From the IMG/VR virus record IMGVR_UViG_3300028966_000062: 64,000 bases of DNA; one strand, written 5' to 3'. Of the stretch, positions 24,077-42,328 are shown in pieces (positions within the stretch are counted from its first letter, which is position 1; every line of letters starts with the position of its first letter). The DNA is from a virus. The translations under genes were made by a program, and so were the position numbers. The notes below the pieces were generated by a model. It saw only the letters and a program-made list of their open reading frames with translations, did not search any database and was not told the origin of the DNA.

Positions 24077-24161
24077 GCCAAGGTGCTGCAAATGGGAGAC
24101 AGGGCGAGCCCAAACCTCGCTGTGGAAACACATGCGGTTTCGAATACCGTCCTTGGCACCA
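24077..24161 (+). tRNA. tRNA-Leu (anticodon CAA), class II long variable arm
   Basis: acceptor GCCAAGG/CCTTGGC, anticodon arm GCGAG-CCCAAAC-CTCGC, variable hairpin TGTG-GAAA-CACA, T-arm GCGGT-TTCGAAT-ACCGT, discriminator A + CCA; position 33 is C (unusual). Confidence 0.55.
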
Positions 24162-24200
24162 GAGTCCGAATATTCATTTATTAGATGTTGGAGGCATTTT

Positions 24201-25097
24201 ATGAAAAAGATTGATAAACTTACAAAAGAAGAAATTGAGCAAGCTTTTGAGGAAAGCAAAAGTTAGGCTGCGGTTGCGGAGAAGCTTGGATATTCAAAAA
24301 ATGGTGGAAGTACGAATCACGTACTTCAAGATTGTGCAAAAGCGCACAATATAAATACTTCTCATTTCACTGGGCAGGGCTAGAATAAAGGGAACGTGGA
24401 TTTGTCTCGTTTTAAAAATGGAAGACGAATAAAGGATTTAAAATCCGCACTTCTTTCTATCAAACCATATAAGTGTGAATGTTGTGGAAACTCTGAATAG
24501 ATGGGCAAACAGATTCCATTGCAAGTACATCATATTGACGGAAACCACATAAATAATGAGTTAGACAATCTTCAGTTGCTTTGCCCGAATTGTCATGCAC
24601 AAACTGATAATTGGTGCAAAAATAATATCGGGAAATACAAGACTGTGAGCGATAAAGATTTTCTTGATGCGTTAAAAACAACATCAACTATAAATGCCGC
24701 TCTTGAAAAAGTTGGAATTTATTATTCTGCGAGAGTGTGGTATGACAAAGCAAGGCAACTAATGATTGAAAACAACGTAACTCAAATTCCACGTGAAAAG
24801 GTTATCCGTGAGAAAAAAGAAAGAAAAAGAAGAAAAATCAAATATTGTTCAATATGCGGAAAAGAAATGAGTCCGCGTGCAAAAGGATGTCTCTGTAAAA
24901 ATTGTTTAAAAGGAAATCCTTACAGTAAACGCATTGATTTTCCTGATAAAGAACAATTGATGGTAGACACAGCTTCAATGTCCTTTCAAGATGTTGGAAG
25001 AAAATATGGAGTATCAGGAAATGCCATACGTAAATGGTGCAAGTATTATGATTTACCATACAGAAAATTAGATATGAACAGTAAAGAGGAAAATTAA
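24201..25097 (+). CDS. HNH homing endonuclease with N- and C-terminal HTH-like regions; single reading frame containing three in-frame TAG codons (24264, 24381, 24498)
   Basis: KCECCGNSE-TAG-MGKQIPLQVHHIDGNHINNELDNLQLLCPNCHAQT HNH signature; no frameshift between segments; TAGs sit where conserved Trp is expected. Confidence 0.7.
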
Positions 25098-25141
25098 CGT
25101 TGATAAAAAAGAAGCTGTAAAAAAATACAGCTTCTATATAT

Positions 25142-25229
25142 GCCGCAGTGATGGAGTGACATACATTTCCCGCTTAAACCGGGACGCCTGAAATATGGAT
25201 CGTGGGTTTGAATCCCACCTTCGGCACCA
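25142..25229 (+). tRNA. tRNA-Leu (anticodon TAA)
   Basis: acceptor GCCGCAG/CTTCGGC, anticodon arm TCCCG-CTTAAAC-CGGGA, long variable arm, T-arm GTGGG-TTTGAAT-CCCAC, ACCA end. Confidence 0.6.
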
Positions 25230-25232
25230 TAT

Positions 25233-25306
25233 CGAGAACGTGGTGTAATGGTAACACGCCTGCTTTGGGAGCAGGAGTTGCAGTTCAAATCTGACGTTTT
25301 CGACCA
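25233..25306 (+). tRNA. probable tRNA-Pro (anticodon TGG), noncanonical T-stem
   Basis: acceptor CGAGAAC/GTTTTCG + A + CCA; anticodon arm CCTGC-TTTGGGA-GCAGG; T-loop TTCAAAT but only 3 bp T-stem. Confidence 0.35.
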
Positions 25307-25411
25307 GTTGGTTTCCCAACATGCTTTTCATAAAATACCTTTCCTATTATTCTTGGCTCTCCAAAAATGGAGCAATAGGACACAGCAAGCCAAGTATATA
25401 ATGCGTCGTAG

Positions 25412-25485
25412 CCAAGCGGTTAAGGCAGGGTCCTTTGAAGTCCCGATTGCGAAAGTTCGATTCTTTCCGGCGCAATTTATATGCC
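25412..25485 (+). tRNA. tRNA-Gln (anticodon TTG)
   Basis: acceptor TGCGTCG/CGGCGCA, D-arm GCC-AAGCGGTTAA-GGC, anticodon loop CTTTGAA, T-arm GAAAG-TTCGATT-CTTTC. Confidence 0.55.
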
Positions 25486-25492
25486 ACAGTGG

Positions 25493-25567
25493 TGGAATTG
25501 ACCTACACATCTATTTTAGGGGTAGACGCCGAAAGGCTTGCGAGTTTGAGTCTCGCCTGTGGCACCA
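25493..25567 (+). tRNA. tRNA-Leu (anticodon TAG)
   Basis: acceptor GCCACAG/CTGTGGC + A + CCA; anticodon arm TCTAT-TTTAGGG-GTAGA; long variable arm; T-arm GCGAG-TTTGAGT-CTCGC. Confidence 0.6.
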
Positions 25568-25666
25568 CGGTCATAGAATGGTTGCGTACCGTTTGTTGAT
25601 CTCCTTTACTATTATTCCCAGCTCGCCAGTGATGGTGCAGTAGTGTTTTGTAAGCTGGGTTTTCAT

Positions 25667-25741
25667 GCGGCGGTCGTACAACGGCTAGTACATCAGCCTT
25701 CCAAGCTGAGGATGAGGTTTCGACTACCTTTCGCTGCTCCA
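25667..25741 (+). tRNA. tRNA-Gly (anticodon TCC)
   Basis: acceptor GCGGCGG/TCGCTGC, D-arm GTAC-AACGGCTA-GTAC, anticodon arm TCAGC-CTTCCAA-GCTGA, T-arm GAGGT-TTCGACT-ACCTT, T + CCA. Confidence 0.6.
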
Positions 25742-25930
25742 ATCTCGTATGGGTAGGATCTTTGGCGGTCAGATCTGGCCGCGCCTGTGCGAGATACCAC
25801 CCCGAAAGGGGCGAGATATAGGAAATGTGCATCGCTGTTATTCCTTCCTCGTCTATATGATATAGATGCAATAGTGTTTTATAAGGAAGGTGCCCAGTTG
25901 AATAGTTGCAGCTATTTAACTGGTTTTTAT

Positions 25931-26011
25931 GGGACATTATCTCAATTGGTTAGAGAACTCAGCTCATAACTGAGCATATGTATCACGGTTCAAGTCCGAC
26001 ATGTCCCACCA
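25931..26011 (+). tRNA. tRNA-Met (anticodon CAT; initiator/elongator/Ile2 not resolved)
   Basis: acceptor GGGACAT/ATGTCCC + A + CCA; D-arm TCTC-AATTGGTTA-GAGA; anticodon arm CTCAG-CTCATAA-CTGAG; T-loop TTCAAGT with weak T-stem. Confidence 0.55.
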
Positions 26012-26135: not shown

Positions 26136-26152
26136 GAAAAGGAGGTGGTTTG

Positions 26153-27725
26153 GTGAAACATTATGGAAGTATTTGCGAGATTGATGGTTCTAAGATTGAA
26201 CCTGTCTCGTGTATCACTGGTGGTTCACCTTGTTAGCCAAGATCTTTCTATTGCCGGTAAGCGGGCAGGTTTGGCTGGAGAACGGTCTGGTCTATTTATG
26301 GAAATGATTCGTGTGATAAAAGAAATGAGGGATACCACCAATGGAGAATATCCAAAATTTGCAATCTGGGAAAATGTTAGAGGAGCACTCTCCTCAAACA
26401 ACGGAGAAGACTTCCGATGTGTCTTGGAAGAATTTGCACACATCGTCGAAGCAGACGCTACAATTCCTAAACCTTCGGAAAAAGGTGGAAAATGGTCTAA
26501 ATCCGGCGCAATTTCCGGTAATGGATGGTCTTTGGCATGGAGACTCTTCGATGCTCAATACTGGGGAGTGCCCCAACGTCGTCAAAGAATCGCGCTTGTC
26601 ATGGATTTTGGAGGACAACGTGCCGCAAAGATATTATTTGAGCGCACGGGCGTGCCAGGGAATTCTGACGAGAGCATCCCGACGTGGCAAGGTGCTGCCA
26701 GAATTGCTGAAAAATGCATTGTTGGAAATGATCGAGTGGTGGGAGAAAAAAGCTTTTGTATCGTCGGAAACATGATTGACAGAGAAACCAACATGAATGG
26801 GACTGGTGTAAAAGAAGATACTGCTTTCACTATAAACACTATTGACCGTAATGCTGTTGCCTACACTTTAAAGATTCGTTCAGGATGCGAAGGTGGTGGC
26901 AAAGGCGCACTGGTACAAATCGAGAAGAGCGCAACGCTTTCTACATTGCAAGATCAAACGTTAATTTGCTTGGCAGACAACACCTCTTTACATAATTCAA
27001 AACAAAAGATTTCGCCGGTGGTGTTTGAGAGTCACAGTCAGGATGCTCGATACACTCAACAGGGCGACACAAGTCCGGCTTGTACGGCTCAATGGGGGAC
27101 TGGTGGCAATAATATGCCGCTTGTTGCTGAAAAGAAAACCTTTGCAATGCAACGCATTGGTGAATACAAGGAAAGTGAACAGGCCAGCACAATGAAATCT
27201 CGTGATTATAAAGATGCAACTGATCTTGTAGTTGAAGAGAAAGAGGTGAAATGTGCTGGATTTCCACTTGGATTTAGAGCAGAAAATACGAAATGCTACG
27301 ATGAAGTGGCTACTACGCTTTGCAATGGTACGCGGCCTGGATTTACTACTGGATGTGTTCTCAATTGGATTGTTCGCCGCTTGACTCCTGTCGAGTGTGA
27401 ACGGTTACAGGGTTTTCCTGATGGATGGACCGATATTGGCGAGTGGGTTGACGAGAATGGTAAAAAGCACAAGCCAGCTGATTCTCCTCGGTACAAGGCA
27501 CTCGGTAATTCAATCGCTTTGCCTCAATGGTATTGGATTTTCCAGAAAATGAAGCCGTATATCGGTGAAAATCCTACGCTTGGCAGTCTTTTCGATGGGA
27601 TTGGTGGCTTTCCGCTTGTCTTTGAAAGTACGTATGGTGATGGTACTGCTATCTGGGGATCTGAAATCGAACCGTTCTGCGTTGCAGTAACTAAGAAGCA
27701 TTTTCCAGAAAAGCAAGGAGGATAA
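26153..27725 (+). pseudogene. DNA cytosine-C5 methyltransferase, motif order permuted (IV-VI-VIII-TRD-IX-X-I-II), disrupted at catalytic PCQ by 4-nt TAGC (26234-26237)
   Basis: frame 1 GTG 26153: KHYGSICEIDGSKIEPVSCITGGSPC then TAG; frame 2 continues QDLSIAGKRAG...ENVRG...QRRQR...RLQGFPDGW...LFDGIGGF; track ORF 26163 N-terminus is spurious. Confidence 0.7.
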
Positions 27726-27726
27726 T

Positions 27727-28268
27727 TTGCCAGAAAATAAAGGATATTTAACAGCTGACCGATCTGCGGTAGGCGATGAGCGATACACACCGGTTTACGC
27801 GGTTATTCCATTGCTTGAATTTGCCCCCCGTCGAGTAAAACAGTGATTTGGTGTCCGTTTGATAAAGAGTGGTCTGCCTTTGTGCAGGTGTTCAGAAATG
27901 CTGGATATAAAGTAGAATATAGCCACATTGATAACGGACAAGATTTCTTTACATACGAACCGGAATATTGGGATATTATGATTTCAAACCCTCCTTTTAG
28001 TAGGAAGGATGAAGTATTGCGTAGAGCCTATGAGCTTAAAAAGCCGTTTGCTCTACTACTTCCTGCAAATAGTATTCAGGGTAAGACACGATTTGACATC
28101 TTCAAAAATGATGTACAGATGCTGTGTTTTGATTCTCGAATAGGATTCATGGACCCTAAACACGCAGACAGCCCTGTCGAGGGAGTGTCTTTTGGAAGTG
28201 CATACTTCTGTAGAAATTTTCTTCCCAGTAAGTTAGAGTTACGAAAACTTGATAAGAAAATCTCATAA
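27727..28268 (+). pseudogene. Dam-like DNA N6-adenine methyltransferase (NPPF motif) split by -1 frameshift in C6 run 27824-27829
   Basis: TTG 27727 after AAGGAGGA: LPENKGYLTADRSAVGDERYTPVYAVIPLLEFAP then frame change to SSKTVIWCPFDKEW...DIMISNPPFS. Confidence 0.5.
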
Positions 28269-38642: not shown

Positions 38643-38964
38643 AGATAGAAATAAAGGTCTGCGAGTCCTTGATTATATCGACGAGAATGAAATTTTAGCG
38701 CAGTTGTCAGAAGAGGCTTCTGAAGTTGCAAAGGCGGCATTAAAGCTTCGCCGGGCTCGTGATAGAAAAGAACCCTACACCAGTAAGTATTCGTGAAGCG
38801 TGGGCTGATTTGAATGAAGAATATGGCGATGTACTCAATTGCCTATATGCGTTGTTTGATGACGACGATGACCGTATTTATGATTTTTTTTGAACACGCA
38901 AATATTACTGCCGATGAAAAGCGCAAGCGTTGGATTAAGCGCCTGAAGGAACGTAATCAGTTTT
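38635..38964 (+). pseudogene. MazG-like NTP pyrophosphohydrolase interrupted by two compensating frameshifts (~38770 and T8 run 38882-38889)
   Basis: EEASEVAKAALKL (frame A), REAWADLNEEYGDVLNCLYALFDDDD (frame A+1), EHANITADEKRKRWIKRLKERNQF (frame A). Confidence 0.4.
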
Positions 38965-38983
38965 AATGGTGGAAGGAGAATAG

Positions 38984-41900
38984 ATGTCAGATAATTTTGT
39001 AAATCTTCATGTACATACAGCGCAGGGTTCGTTACTTGACTCTATTCTTACCGTCAAGGAACTTGTAAACTTTGCCAAAGAAAATGGCCAGAAAGCAATC
39101 GCGGTTACAGACCACGGAAAAATGCACTCTTTTGTTGACCAAGTTAAGGCTTGCAAGGAAGCAGGTATTAAGCCTATCATCGGCTGTGAAGTCTATGAAG
39201 TAGATAATCAGGCAGAGAAAGCCGATACAAAAGACTATAAACAACCTCGTTACCATCTTGTTTTACTAGCAAAGAACGAGACCGGTTTAAAAAATCTATT
39301 TAAGATTGTTTCAAATGCTTGCGTTGATGGTATGTATAAAAAGCCTCGAACTTCTTTGAACATTATTGAACAGAACGAGTGGGGTAAAGGTATCATCTGT
39401 CTTACAGCCTGTCAAGTTGGTCGAATGAGTAGATTACTTGTTGATGGCAACGAGACTGAAGCATGGCAGTTATGGAACAAACTGGAATGGATCTTTGATG
39501 ACGTGTTTATGGAAGTACAGTCACATGATACGCCAGATCAAGCTGAGGCCAATGCAAAAATTGCGGCGTTTATTAGGAAATACGACTTGCCGTATACCAT
39601 TACGACCGATGCTCACATGCTTTCTAAAGAAGATATTGATGCACACTCTGTCTTTGTTGAGATTGGAGAAGGCCGAGAAGTTGGAGAAAGTTATGTTGAC
39701 TGTTATCTTCAGACCGAAGACGATGTGCTAAGAACACTTTCAAAGCAGTTTGATGAAGACTTCATCCGAAAAGGTTGCTCAATGTCTGTGAAAATTGCAG
39801 ATATGGTTGACGATATTGATATTGGTCTTGGCCAGCCAAACCAGATGCCAGAAGTGAAAATTGAAGGTAAATTTGATTCGCATCTGGATTACCTGCGTTA
39901 CCTCGTTTATTCTACTTTTGATGAAAAATTCGGATGGATGAGTAAAGAAGAACAGCAAACCAGGCGGGACAGAATTGAGATGGAGCTTGACGTTTTGGAA
40001 TATGTTGACTACATCGACTATTTCATCATGCTGTATATGCTTTGTAAGGTGGCCGATGAACGAGGTATCCCTCGTGGCTATTCTCGTGGTTCTGGTGCAA
40101 ACTGTCTATGTCTATTTATGCTAAACGTTACGCAGATTGATTCTGTTCGTTGGGATCTTGACTTCTCTCGTTTTGCCAATAAGGGGCGTAAGAGCCTGGC
40201 AGATTTCGACTTTGACATTAGCCGTCGTCGTCGTAAAGAGCTTGTTTCTATTGCAGAAGAACTTTTTGGAAAAGAAAGCGTTGCTCCTATTGCAACTTTT
40301 AATTCTTTGTCTACTAAGGTTGCCATTAAGGATATTGGTAAGGTGCTGAATGAAGATCCAGAAAGTCCATATTATATGCAGATTCCGTATGAGCTACGCA
40401 ACGAGGTTGCCAAGCTGATTCCGACTGTAAAAACGCTGGATGACCTTGGTGAAGAGGTTGAGAAGGAAGTTCTGCTAAAAGATATCCTCGGTAAAAGCGA
40501 GCAGCTTTCTAATGTGTATGATAAGTTCCCTCTGTGGTTTAAGTACGTTATGCGGCTTGAAGGTTTACCGAAAAGTATGGGTCGCCATGCTGCAGGAACT
40601 TTGATTACACCTAAGCCTGTCATTGAATATTGTCCTCTCTGTATGGATAGAGAAGGTAATCAGATGTGTCAGCTTGAAATGCACAATGCTATGGATGACC
40701 TGTCTCTAGTTAAGATGGATTTTCTTGGTCTTGAAAATTTGGACACGATTGATGACACATTAAAGATGGCCGGTCTAACTTGGAAGGATGTTGACATCAA
40801 CCATCTCGACCTAAACGATAAGGCAGTCTACGACGCAGTTTATAAGTCTGGACACACAATTGGTATTTTTCAGATGGAGTCTGCTGAAGCTCGAAAGATG
40901 TGTGTTGAAGCAAAATGTGACAACGCCGAGGATATCATTGTTGTGAATGCAGCAAACCGCCCTGGTACTAAGGACAGCTTCCCGACGTATTGTTCCAATA
41001 AGCTTTATCCAGAGACTATCAAACTACTTCATCCTGATATCAAACAGCTTTTTGCCAAGACTCAGTACATTCTTCTTTATCAGGAACAGGCTCTGGCAGT
41101 ATTTCGTTATGCAGGATTCCCTGAAACTGAGGTTGACAATGCTCGTCGTGCCATTGGTAAGAAAAAGAAAGATGTTATGGCATCCTTGGAGGTCCAGTTT
41201 AGAGATGGTCTTCACAAGAAAGGATGGAACGATTATCAGATTTCTGAGATGTGGGCATTGATCTTGAAACAGGCTTCTTATTCCTTCAACCGGGGCCACG
41301 CAGTTGCTTATGGGCTTCTTTCTTACCTGACAGCATACCTGAAAACTCATTATACTGAGTATTTCATGGCTGCGTGTATGATTACAAAGGAAGATGATTC
41401 TGGCAAAATGGGTGTGTTTATCAACGAATGCGACCGTCTACATATTCGTGTCCTTCCTCCAAGTGTCAACAAGTCTGATATGGAGTTTAAGGCTGATGCG
41501 GAAAAGCACACAATCCTGTTTGGTTTGAAAGCCATTAAGGGAATGGGTGAGAGTATCGCTTCAGGAGTGATTGCAGACCGTCCATATTCTGGACTGGCAG
41601 ACTTTGTTCAGAGAGCAAACGGTGGTAAGATTGGAACCTCAAATGTTGTCAAGTTGATTAAGGCTGGCGCTATCCCGACAAAAGACAAGAGAAAAATCTT
41701 AATCACTTTTGCAAATATGGTTTTTGAGAATGAGTATAAAGAGAAAGGATTCCATGAGATGGCGTCTCTCCCTAAGATTTCCATTCTTAAAGACGAATAC
41801 GGCATTGATACGGACTCTGTTAAAGACAAACCAACCAGACTTGCCTTATATAATAAGGTAAGAAGGGAGCGCTGGGAAGCGGGCACATGGAATCGAAAGA

Positions 41901-42328
41901 AAGAAAAAGACAAAAAGCGGAATGCATTTATGCAGGCGTTTGCTGAAAAGTATATGCAAGACGAGCACATGTGGGAATTTGAAACTCTTTCAATGTTTTT
42001 GACTAGCAATCCCATTAAGGATGCTTGCACCTATATTGATGCTGGTCTTGATACTGTAGAGGATGGCGGTAAGGCAACTGCTATTTGTGTCATCGTAGAT
42101 ATCCAAAAAAAGAAAGATAAACGTGGCAACCAGTTTGCGTACTTACATGTTTACACGACAGGTGGTATTGTCGAAATGATTTGTTGGGCATCTCAGTATG
42201 CACGATATTCAAGTCTGATTTCAAAGGGTAACGATCTTGCAATCCTTTGCAAGAGAAAAGAAAATTCGTACATTGTTGAGAAGATGAAGCCTTATAAGCA
42301 GTGGCTGCATGATAGAGAGATAGCGTAA
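38984..42328 (+). CDS. dnaE: DNA polymerase III alpha subunit (DnaE-type) with N-terminal PHP domain
   Basis: NLHVHTAQGSLLDS PHP start; 1114 aa; conserved pol III alpha core. Confidence 0.8.
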   Translation: MSDNFVNLHVHTAQGSLLDSILTVKELVNFAKENGQKAIAVTDHGKMHSFVDQVKACKEAGIKPIIGCEVYEVDNQAEKADTKDYKQPRYHLVLLAKNETGLKNLFKIVSNACVDGMYKKPRTSLNIIEQNEWGKGIICLTACQVGRMSRLLVDGNETEAWQLWNKLEWIFDDVFMEVQSHDTPDQAEANAKIAAFIRKYDLPYTITTDAHMLSKEDIDAHSVFVEIGEGREVGESYVDCYLQTEDDVLRTLSKQFDEDFIRKGCSMSVKIADMVDDIDIGLGQPNQMPEVKIEGKFDSHLDYLRYLVYSTFDEKFGWMSKEEQQTRRDRIEMELDVLEYVDYIDYFIMLYMLCKVADERGIPRGYSRGSGANCLCLFMLNVTQIDSVRWDLDFSRFANKGRKSLADFDFDISRRRRKELVSIAEELFGKESVAPIATFNSLSTKVAIKDIGKVLNEDPESPYYMQIPYELRNEVAKLIPTVKTLDDLGEEVEKEVLLKDILGKSEQLSNVYDKFPLWFKYVMRLEGLPKSMGRHAAGTLITPKPVIEYCPLCMDREGNQMCQLEMHNAMDDLSLVKMDFLGLENLDTIDDTLKMAGLTWKDVDINHLDLNDKAVYDAVYKSGHTIGIFQMESAEARKMCVEAKCDNAEDIIVVNAANRPGTKDSFPTYCSNKLYPETIKLLHPDIKQLFAKTQYILLYQEQALAVFRYAGFPETEVDNARRAIGKKKKDVMASLEVQFRDGLHKKGWNDYQISEMWALILKQASYSFNRGHAVAYGLLSYLTAYLKTHYTEYFMAACMITKEDDSGKMGVFINECDRLHIRVLPPSVNKSDMEFKADAEKHTILFGLKAIKGMGESIASGVIADRPYSGLADFVQRANGGKIGTSNVVKLIKAGAIPTKDKRKILITFANMVFENEYKEKGFHEMASLPKISILKDEYGIDTDSVKDKPTRLALYNKVRRERWEAGTWNRKKEKDKKRNAFMQAFAEKYMQDEHMWEFETLSMFLTSNPIKDACTYIDAGLDTVEDGGKATAICVIVDIQKKKDKRGNQFAYLHVYTTGGIVEMICWASQYARYSSLISKGNDLAILCKRKENSYIVEKMKPYKQWLHDREIA

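Follow-up and report, generated by a model that had tools for sequence, protein, structure and literature searches.

An early in-frame stop codon followed by a +1 shift of the ribosome is an established regulatory device, with release factor 2 (RF2, gene prfB) as an example, and the 2016 review of frameshifting that treats it names no phage cytosine methyltransferase (PMC5009743). In phage T4 gene 60, ribosomes bypass a non-coding insert, and this bypass element itself belongs to a mobile element (bioRxiv 10.1101/2022.08.31.505936). Cytosine-C5 methyltransferases are known for a rearrangement of another kind, circular permutation. In the REBASE survey of Slaska-Kiss et al. (2018), all natural permuted C5-methyltransferases found had their break in the variable region, with motifs IX and X first; class B topology, whose new N-terminus falls between motifs II and III and whose old termini are fused, was absent among natural enzymes, and an engineered class B permutant (cp62M.MpeI) was about as active as wild type (PMC5944983). 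Here we describe a C5-methyltransferase gene at 26153-27725 on the + strand of a 64,000-nucleotide (nt) stretch of viral DNA (IMG/VR record IMGVR_UViG_3300028966_000062; the whole stretch is called the window below). The gene carries the four bases TAGC inside the codons for its catalytic PCQ motif. As judged from conservation and substitution patterns, this TAGC represents a recoding-type site that is widespread and under selection, and whose category, stop-dependent +1 recoding, is already known. The 4-nt TAG+N is probably passed by the ribosome through a programmed frame jump rather than being damage. In the literature, no paper was found that joins programmed frameshifting and phage cytosine methyltransferases.

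The gene begins at GTG 26153, behind a strong Shine-Dalgarno (SD) sequence, AGGAGGTGGT at 26140-26149 (+); all alleles with the insert, which we call recoded, have GG(A/G)GGTG(A/G)T in this extended SD position. The leader frame (26153-26233, +) consists of GTG and 26 further codons, reads VKHYGSICEIDGSKIEPVSCITGGSPC and contains motif III and the first half of motif IV, its 27th and last codon being the TGT of the catalytic Cys. An in-frame TAG (26234-26236) and a spacer base C (26237) follow, and these four bases form the proposed recoding site UGU_UAG_C. From CAA 26238 the reading continues in the +1 frame as QDLSIAGKR onward for 495 codons, with TAA at 27723-27725 (main frame 26238-27725, +). 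The second half of motif IV (QDLSIAG) opens this frame at 26238, and is followed on the same strand by motif VI (ENV, 26358-26384), motif VIII (QRRQR, 26562-26600), a modular target-recognition region (about 26700-27370), motif IX (RRLTPVECERLQGFP, 27375-27419), motif X (GNSIALP, 27492-27524), motif I (LFDGIGGF, 27588-27614) and motif II (WGSEIEPF, 27654-27689). Motifs I, IV, VI, VIII, IX and X were thus all located, with IV split by TAGC between C and Q, and the order over the two frames is III, IV, VI, VIII, IX, X, I, II in place of the canonical I-to-X order in a single frame. Window translation and motif positions bear out an earlier note on this DNA, made from the letters alone, in its GTG start, its placing of TAGC at 26234-26237 within PCQ and its motif order. 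Joined leader and main frame give a protein that matches Pfam PF00145 with 123 bits (cut-off 22; E = 1.8e-35), and the window methylase matches PHROG 116 'DNA methyltransferase' at 7.7e-76. AlphaFold2 applied to an intact homologue (P0111) with a shallow alignment gave a predicted local distance difference score (pLDDT) of 29. Gene callers start these genes at a spurious out-of-frame ATG ('MEVFARLMVLRL…'), so that the catalytic Cys is missed in hundreds of database entries.

The insert is widespread, well past anything that chance would give. A degenerate scan, in which only the amino acids of GGSPC-TAG-N-QDLS were fixed, found it in more than 117 IMG/VR viral stretches on contigs of 4 to 141 kb, a lower bound for viruses, and in 7 bacterial genomes, all Oscillospiraceae/Clostridia and including the isolate Oscillibacter sp. 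1-3. With exact flanks, all 44 close relatives of the window's allele class carried it, and the sole insert-free match was an unrelated gene of canonical order. Two allele classes occupy the locus in the lineage of the window (110-140 kb contigs). Class A alleles, at 35 of the 79 loci analysed and including the window, have the GTG start and read …GGT GGT TCA CCT TGT TAG C/T CAA…; class B alleles encode an intact GGSPCQDLS and have CTG in the start position. In class B alleles (L005, L019-L023 and others) this CTG stands 8 nt after AGGAGG with an in-frame TGA two codons upstream, and because CTG occupies the start position, gene callers begin at a later TTG ('MSQAGKREG').

The insert is also highly specific in sequence. 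When any four bases were allowed between TGY and CAR, we found TAGA 84 times, TAGC 83 times, TAGT 7 times and TTGC twice, so that 174 of 176 inserts are TAG+N; TAA, TGA and TAGG were never seen among these 176 loci with a 4-nt insert at the PC/Q point. The sole stop used in these inserts is UAG, read by release factor 1 (RF1) only, and the spacer base in relatives is A, C or T, never G. A and C after a stop codon are weak termination contexts in Escherichia coli. A fourth base that is dominated by A and C, rarely T and never G is what selection for inefficient termination would produce. Specificity extends upstream into a conserved nucleotide core, GGTGGTTCACCTTGTTAG plus C (26219-26237, +), a single-copy sequence in the window that combines an SD-like GGUGGU with an anti-SD-like UCACCU and has its synonymous sites frozen in recoded alleles only. 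The Cys codon of recoded alleles is TGT in 74/74 unique contexts, though TGC was allowed by the scan, and GGT GGT TCA CCT are each present in at least 90% of them. In contrast, intact permuted alleles encode almost the same peptide with TGC or TGT for Cys (61 : 43) and with GGC/GGA, AGT/AGC/TCG and CCG/CCA/CCT codons, and mostly start with ATG. In every well-formed recoded allele, the start is a GTG that precedes TAG by exactly 27 codons, with G and GG(A/G)GGTG(A/G)T ahead of it, while the leader peptides differ widely (e.g. VKHLGDITKINGAEIEPVWC, VEHLGDITKLNGYELPAVDV and VYHFGDITQINGANVPVVDI). Frames of 440-690 codons are kept in many relatives. In a rare derivative of the site (L350/L351), TGT TTG C CAA, the stop is gone yet the frame is still shifted.

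This distribution leaves a negligible chance that TAGC arose as an error in sequencing or assembly, or as a recent mutation private to this genome. Such errors are a general possibility, and a C6 run in the next gene could be one, but the same insert recurs in an isolate genome and, across many samples, in hundreds of assemblies independent of one another, and it does not lie in a homopolymer. The read error that the earlier note had named as a refutation thus falls away. Plain decay, one of the origins that it had offered for TAGC, does not fit, as the insert is ancient and sequence-specific, and both its flanks are under purifying selection.

That selection was estimated from Nei-Gojobori counts on 30 diverse recoded alleles, all carrying TAG-N, as the ratio of nonsynonymous to synonymous differences per site (pN/pS). 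For the 26 leader codons, pN/pS was 0.36 (pS 0.64) in the GTG frame, and 1.57 and 1.14 in the other two frames. For the first 25 codons after TAG-N, it was 0.20 (pS 0.81) in the +1 frame, and 1.4 and 2.5 in the other two. Each half has thus evolved as coding DNA in its own frame, within the set of genes that bear the insert.

Intact and recoded alleles are interspersed, and the leader has its own history. In three pairs of loci (L129/L261, L085/L242 and L160/L253), the two genes share about 99% identity from the CAR codon on and about 75% over the approximately 100 nt from the SD to TAG-N, and the three recoded leaders of these pairs are nearly identical to each other. In L160, the former start is still seen upstream, as ATG AAA CAT AAGGAGGTGATTTAG GTG AAA CAT…. 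Because identity changes sharply at TAG-N and the recoded leaders are shared, SD, GTG, leader and TAG-N move together by recombination, and the leader, by the evidence of these pairs, behaves as a recombining 5' module. Recombination of the leader leaves unexplained the kept translation start, the fixed 27-codon length, the protein-like substitutions and the single invariant core.

On these grounds we favour, as fairly probable, the reading of TAG-N as a recoding site UGU_UAG_N, most likely for a programmed +1 shift. We infer, beyond what the DNA itself displays, that ribosomes change frame here, and likewise which product they would make and what the site would regulate. Ribosomes would begin at the GTG behind the very strong SD and translate 27 codons to UGU, whereupon UAG enters the A site. 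A fraction of them would then shift +1 at UAG and make the full enzyme, and the remainder would release a 27-residue peptide. With a +1 shift, AGN would be decoded and the product would read ...GGSPC-(S/R)-QDLS..., with GGSPCSQDLSIAGK as the junction peptide in the window; with a bypass, the four bases would be skipped to give ...GGSPCQDLS..., with GGSPCQDLSIAGK at the junction. A 4-nt bypass would yield the canonical PCQ and account for a neutral N, though a landing codon is lacking. By analogy with the layout of prfB, the site may act early in translation to throttle methylase output in a way that is sensitive to RF1. If AGN must be decoded fast, the absence of AGG in the +1 frame would fit as well.

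Several observations speak against a programmed shift at this site. In the +1 frame the P-site tRNA would face GUU, which is not cognate for tRNA-Cys, and UGU therefore cannot re-pair there; classical bacterial +1 sites have a slippery codon in the P site, which is missing here. The SD-like GGUGGU lies 6 nt and not 3 nt from the P-site codon, and it also encodes Gly-Gly. For a bypass, no landing codon matches the take-off UGU, the codon before CAR being AGN. The +1 product would place an extra Ser or Arg beside the catalytic Cys, and no allele with an in-frame PC(S/R)Q, PCxQ or sense-codon insert was found, the sole 3-nt insert being TGA; the lack of a fixed in-frame version can also be counted in favour of recoding. 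Moreover, N flips between A and C (R and S) in near-identical alleles, as a silent site would. A cassette-type allele (L352) reads TGC TGA CAG, with an in-frame UGA and no frameshift, which fits selection for a stop as such. Module recombination weakens arguments from flank divergence alone; recombination is rampant in these genes, and intact alleles could be the source of part of the variation that looks purified.

Other candidates for what acts at the site were tried and set aside. The bases of the core are complementary to those around the SD and start of the same gene, and RNAalifold pairs the two. The SD/anti-SD-like UCACCUUGU helix has pairing potential in 94% of cells, covariation no higher than in shuffles and single-sequence z-scores of -0.7 and -0.15; with no excess of covariation or stability, such a long-range helix is at most a possibility. 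The Rfam search for a known RNA element or riboswitch returned tRNAs only. ACCUUGUUA may pair with positions 1498-1506 of 16S ribosomal RNA, and GGUGGUUC with 1529-1536. Reading TAG as Gln (genetic code 15) would leave the frame wrong after TAG, and the window has no suppressor tRNA (none of its 7 tRNAs has a CUA anticodon, within the 64 kb of genome visible) and no systematic in-frame TAGs; those within its genes are essentially confined to one HNH gene, unlike in a stop-reassigned phage. TAG-stop usage is also alike at recoded and intact loci (10.7% vs 10.6%). Switching of the N-terminus by inversion or a shufflon was rejected, as the core has no second copy or inverted partner in the window. 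No simple repeat of the kind found in phase-variable contingency genes is present at 26225-26245.

Compared with known recoding systems, the layout is closest to that of RF2. Both have an in-frame stop about 26-28 codons after the start with the remainder in the +1 frame, a G-rich SD-like element just upstream, and a base after the stop that seems chosen for weak termination, and both layouts suggest a release-factor-sensitive throttle. They differ in the P-site codon, which is CUU in prfB and here UGU without +1 re-pairing (UGU_U in 74/74 contexts), in the spacing of the SD-like element (3 nt there, 6 nt here), and in the stop, UGA read by RF2 there and UAG read by RF1 here, so that autoregulation by the product does not apply. 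Moreover, the site here interrupts a catalytic motif and belongs to a recombining 5' module. T4 gene 60 offers another likeness, as a phage gene with UAG directly after the last decoded codon and, like its MobA cassette, a non-coding insert in a conserved enzyme that behaves as part of a mobile segment. However, the gap is 4 nt here and 50 nt there, matched take-off and landing codons are absent here, no linked nuclease was found, and a take-off hairpin is unsupported (z-scores -0.7 and -0.15; no covariation). Phase-variable methyltransferases and the G-run 'savior indel' of herpesvirus thymidine kinase share a frame-breaking indel with little or no product, and variable G or C runs do occur in relatives and in the neighbour of this gene. 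In contrast to those systems, TAG-N is no repeat that could switch by slippage, and it is fixed and sequence-specific across lineages.

Among explanations without recoding, the most serious is that TAG-N is a null mutation, an OFF allele which spreads by recombination, either hitch-hiking or because loss of methylation pays, for example in hosts with methylation-dependent restriction; the intact downstream frame would then be due to frequent recombination with functional alleles. We regard this as unlikely, though it takes up several facts that the recoding account handles less easily. Early ends occur in about 65 of 109 recoded alleles as against about 27 of 91 intact ones, mostly at G-runs, and in the lineage of the window extra disruptions affect 12 of 35 class A alleles and 1 of 44 class B alleles. 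These 12 comprise 2 nonsense codons, 5 out-of-frame poly-G tracts and 5 cases of an in-frame TAA followed by AGGAGG, the last brought by a 24-nt block in five relatives, which may be a functional split into two polypeptides. The swapping of the leader-plus-TAGN segment as a module between otherwise 99%-identical genes, the in-frame TGA variant L352, the frameshift in the neighbouring N6-adenine methylase of the window and the frequency of G-run frameshifts across the family fit a null allele as well. However, G-run shifts also affect alleles with an intact PCQ, as well as the isolate phage Toutatis, and are therefore a habit of the family and no mark of decay. For a null allele there is no need of a conserved strong SD, a GTG start, a 27-codon spacing, frozen synonymous sites, TAG as the exclusive stop or avoidance of G at the fourth base. 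It would also leave unexplained why leader codons at pS 0.64 stayed under pN/pS 0.36 while every copy kept TAG-N, and why a single form dominates when nonsense or frameshift mutations elsewhere would do equally well. As a separate observation, poly-G tracts of 7-10 G, whose length varies between assemblies, shift the frame (…WGG|GY…, …IRGG|C.GGGKG…) in recoded and intact alleles alike, at sites equivalent to about 26480 and 26891 of the window; Toutatis is locus L081 in this set, and the versions in the window are interrupted and stable (GGTGGTGGC).

Two further ideas were weighed. The module-like spread of the leader, with its sharp 3' boundary at TAG-N, could reflect immunity to a homing endonuclease: the 4 nt and the recoded synonymous sites would destroy a target in the PCQ-coding sequence, the resistant module would spread by gene conversion, and recoding would compensate, on the model of the 50-nt gene 60 insert and MobA in T4. 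This idea concerns origin and spread and is compatible with recoding, and we consider it improbable. The gene is indeed a hotspot of mobile elements at conserved motifs, with an intein after ENV in P0104, an HNH insert in motif IX in P0112 and L160 and a group II intron in ENV in L344, and HNH genes lie in the tRNA cluster just upstream in the lineage of the window. But no nuclease gene is consistently linked (HNH-like open reading frames (ORFs) within 2.5 kb upstream at 2/15 recoded and 0/19 intact loci), no allele with an intron or intein at the PC|Q position was seen, and an immunity allele should not need a single invariant core. The group II intron inside ENV carries a reverse transcriptase, and another homologue has an insertion after ENVP (within the set P0104, P0112, L160, L344, L345, L205 and L169). 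Purifying selection on the leader would also be explained by a two-piece enzyme, whose 27-residue leader, with Cys at its C-terminus, is freed at UAG, after which ribosomes reinitiate at a main-frame GTG within GGT GGT, 14 nt upstream, and the pieces assemble. Most alleles do read G GTG GTT CAC CTT GTT AGN CAR in the main frame (GTG 26220-26222 in the window), and split C5-methyltransferases, natural and engineered, complement each other (PMC5944983). Nevertheless, 4 of 31 diverse alleles lack that GTG (GGA GGC or GGC GGT/GGC instead), no SD precedes it, a split in the catalytic loop that leaves a 27-residue fragment is unprecedented, and the conservation of TCA CCT TGT, and of TAG specifically, is left unexplained. 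We therefore regard a two-piece enzyme as very improbable. Taken against the three fates for TAGC in the earlier note, recoding is best supported, decay is contradicted by selection and specificity, and deliberate inactivation fits worse.

The rotated motif order can be stated more firmly. The order III-IV…X-I-II is common to hundreds of relatives, including intact ATG-started copies (P0111, L055, L067 and many IMG/VR loci). Permuted genes end …KKHFPE and begin (V/M)KH(L/Y)GD, and the new N-terminus therefore lies between motifs II and III; the GTG start is that Val codon. The break point falls at ...FPE|VKHLGD... of canonical-order relatives, such as ...RMPE|VKHLGD... of the Streptococcus phage Javan105, which reads …SEIESFPIRVTTKRMPE-VKHLGDVSEIKGYEIEPVNIITFGSPCQ… across it. 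The protein of the window starts at motif III (KHYGSI..), passes from motif X to motif I through ...WIFQKMKPYIGENPTLGSLFDGIGGF, and ends with motif II and KKHFPEKQGG, a class B layout that is also present in the intact ATG-started homologues. By its motif order and break point, the gene belongs to a natural class B circularly permuted C5-methyltransferase family, a topology not previously recorded in nature. The family is common in gut phages, including the Faecalibacterium phages Toutatis and Lelie. The earlier note had left a choice between circular permutation and two fused methyltransferase remnants, and the commonness of intact, full-length permuted homologues with the break exactly at FPE|VKHLGD decides for permutation; no separate subunit that encodes the motif I/II block, which the note had considered, was found elsewhere. 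The family shares all ten motifs in rotated order with the natural permuted enzymes of Type H (M.BssHII, M.Alw26I, M2.Eco31I, M.Esp3I and M2.BsaI), but its break lies between II and III, whereas Type H enzymes have a variable-region N-terminus with IX and X before I. The permutation site is the same as in cp62M.MpeI, a laboratory construct, and here it characterises a large natural phage family. Among alleles L001-L080, the target-recognition region (window about 26750-27360) differs by in-frame blocks of 84, 105, 108 (45+63) and 24 nt; this block-wise variability points to a modular enzyme, probably with multiple target-recognition domains.

A second frame appears to be used after motif VIII. 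An ORF at 26341-26775 (+), in frame +1 to the methylase, encodes …SRLSWILEDNVPQRYYLSARACQGILTRASRRGKVLPELLKNAL… at 26590-26721 (+, within the gene), with …LSWILEDNVPQRYYLSARACQGILTRASRRGKVLPELLKNAL… as its conserved part. Tblastn found the alternative-frame peptide in C5-methylase genes of very distant phages (among them P1 dmt, Javan105, Vibrio CP-T1 and mycobacteriophages), and its start follows the main-frame QRRxR by 2-3 codons in 113 of 115 unique genes. Across 36 codons of the segment, the alternative frame has a pN/pS of 0.33 and the annotated frame one of 1.40; in the preceding 18 codons, the relation is reversed (1.11 alternative, 0.28 annotated). In alleles of the L130 type, the alternative frame runs on into the C-terminal part of the enzyme. 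The peptide has no Pfam match and is present in the protein database only as 56 short unannotated ORFs. The segment may be expressed through a second frameshift or as an overlapping gene with internal initiation. Tentatively, the whole may amount to an undescribed device: a non-slippery UGU_UAG_N within PCQ, passed by a +1 shift or a 4-nt hop and carried on a mobile 5' module of about 100 nt, together with a second conserved +1-frame segment, in multi-frame genes that annotation misses.

The surroundings of the gene contain further irregular frames. The adjacent N6-adenine methyltransferase (ERYTP…NPPF, 27727-28268) is split by a frameshift at a C6 run (27824-27829); relatives have C7, in frame, at 5 loci and C6 at 2 loci, and the run may be phase-variable or else reflect a homopolymer error. 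Immediately upstream of the methylase lie 7 phage tRNA genes (24077-26011: Leu-CAA, Leu-TAA, Pro-TGG, Gln-TTG, Leu-TAG, Gly-TCC and Met-CAT), and the last of them (25931-26011), 81 nt long with a CAT anticodon, has an unusually long variable region. Inside this cluster an HNH endonuclease gene (24396-25097) has an in-frame TAG at 24498-24500 (…CECCGNSE*MGKQIPLQVHHIDGN…). This gene occurs at only 3 of 80 related loci, with the TAG in all three; the TAG stands where related HNH proteins presumably have Trp (TGG). The second in-frame TAG that the earlier note had announced thus exists, at 24498, but its suggested connection with TAGC dissolves, since this TAG is of the ordinary in-frame kind and belongs to a mobile HNH gene. 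On the + strand of the window, none of about 70 real ORFs with 100 codons or more terminates in TAG (TAA 42, TGA 28), and the single TAG-ended ORF there is a spurious one over the tRNAs; TAG ends 7.7% of ORFs of at least 100 codons at the loci of relatives and about 10.6% at other methylase loci. At 38957-42328 and in the next ORF, two reading frames of about 1,100 codons stand in the same frame with only a TAA at 42326 between them.

If translated, the +1-frame segment touches textbook phage P1. If the class B assignment is true, the family is a natural example of the permutation topology that proved most active in engineered enzymes and had been sought in nature in vain. If ribosomes indeed change frame at UGU_UAG_N, it would be a new early stop-dependent recoding site that breaks the usual slippery-codon rule, and would inform how ribosomes change frame. 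It would point to a tight, possibly release-factor-dependent control of DNA methylation in abundant Oscillospiraceae gut phages, with intact ON-type alleles at the same locus.

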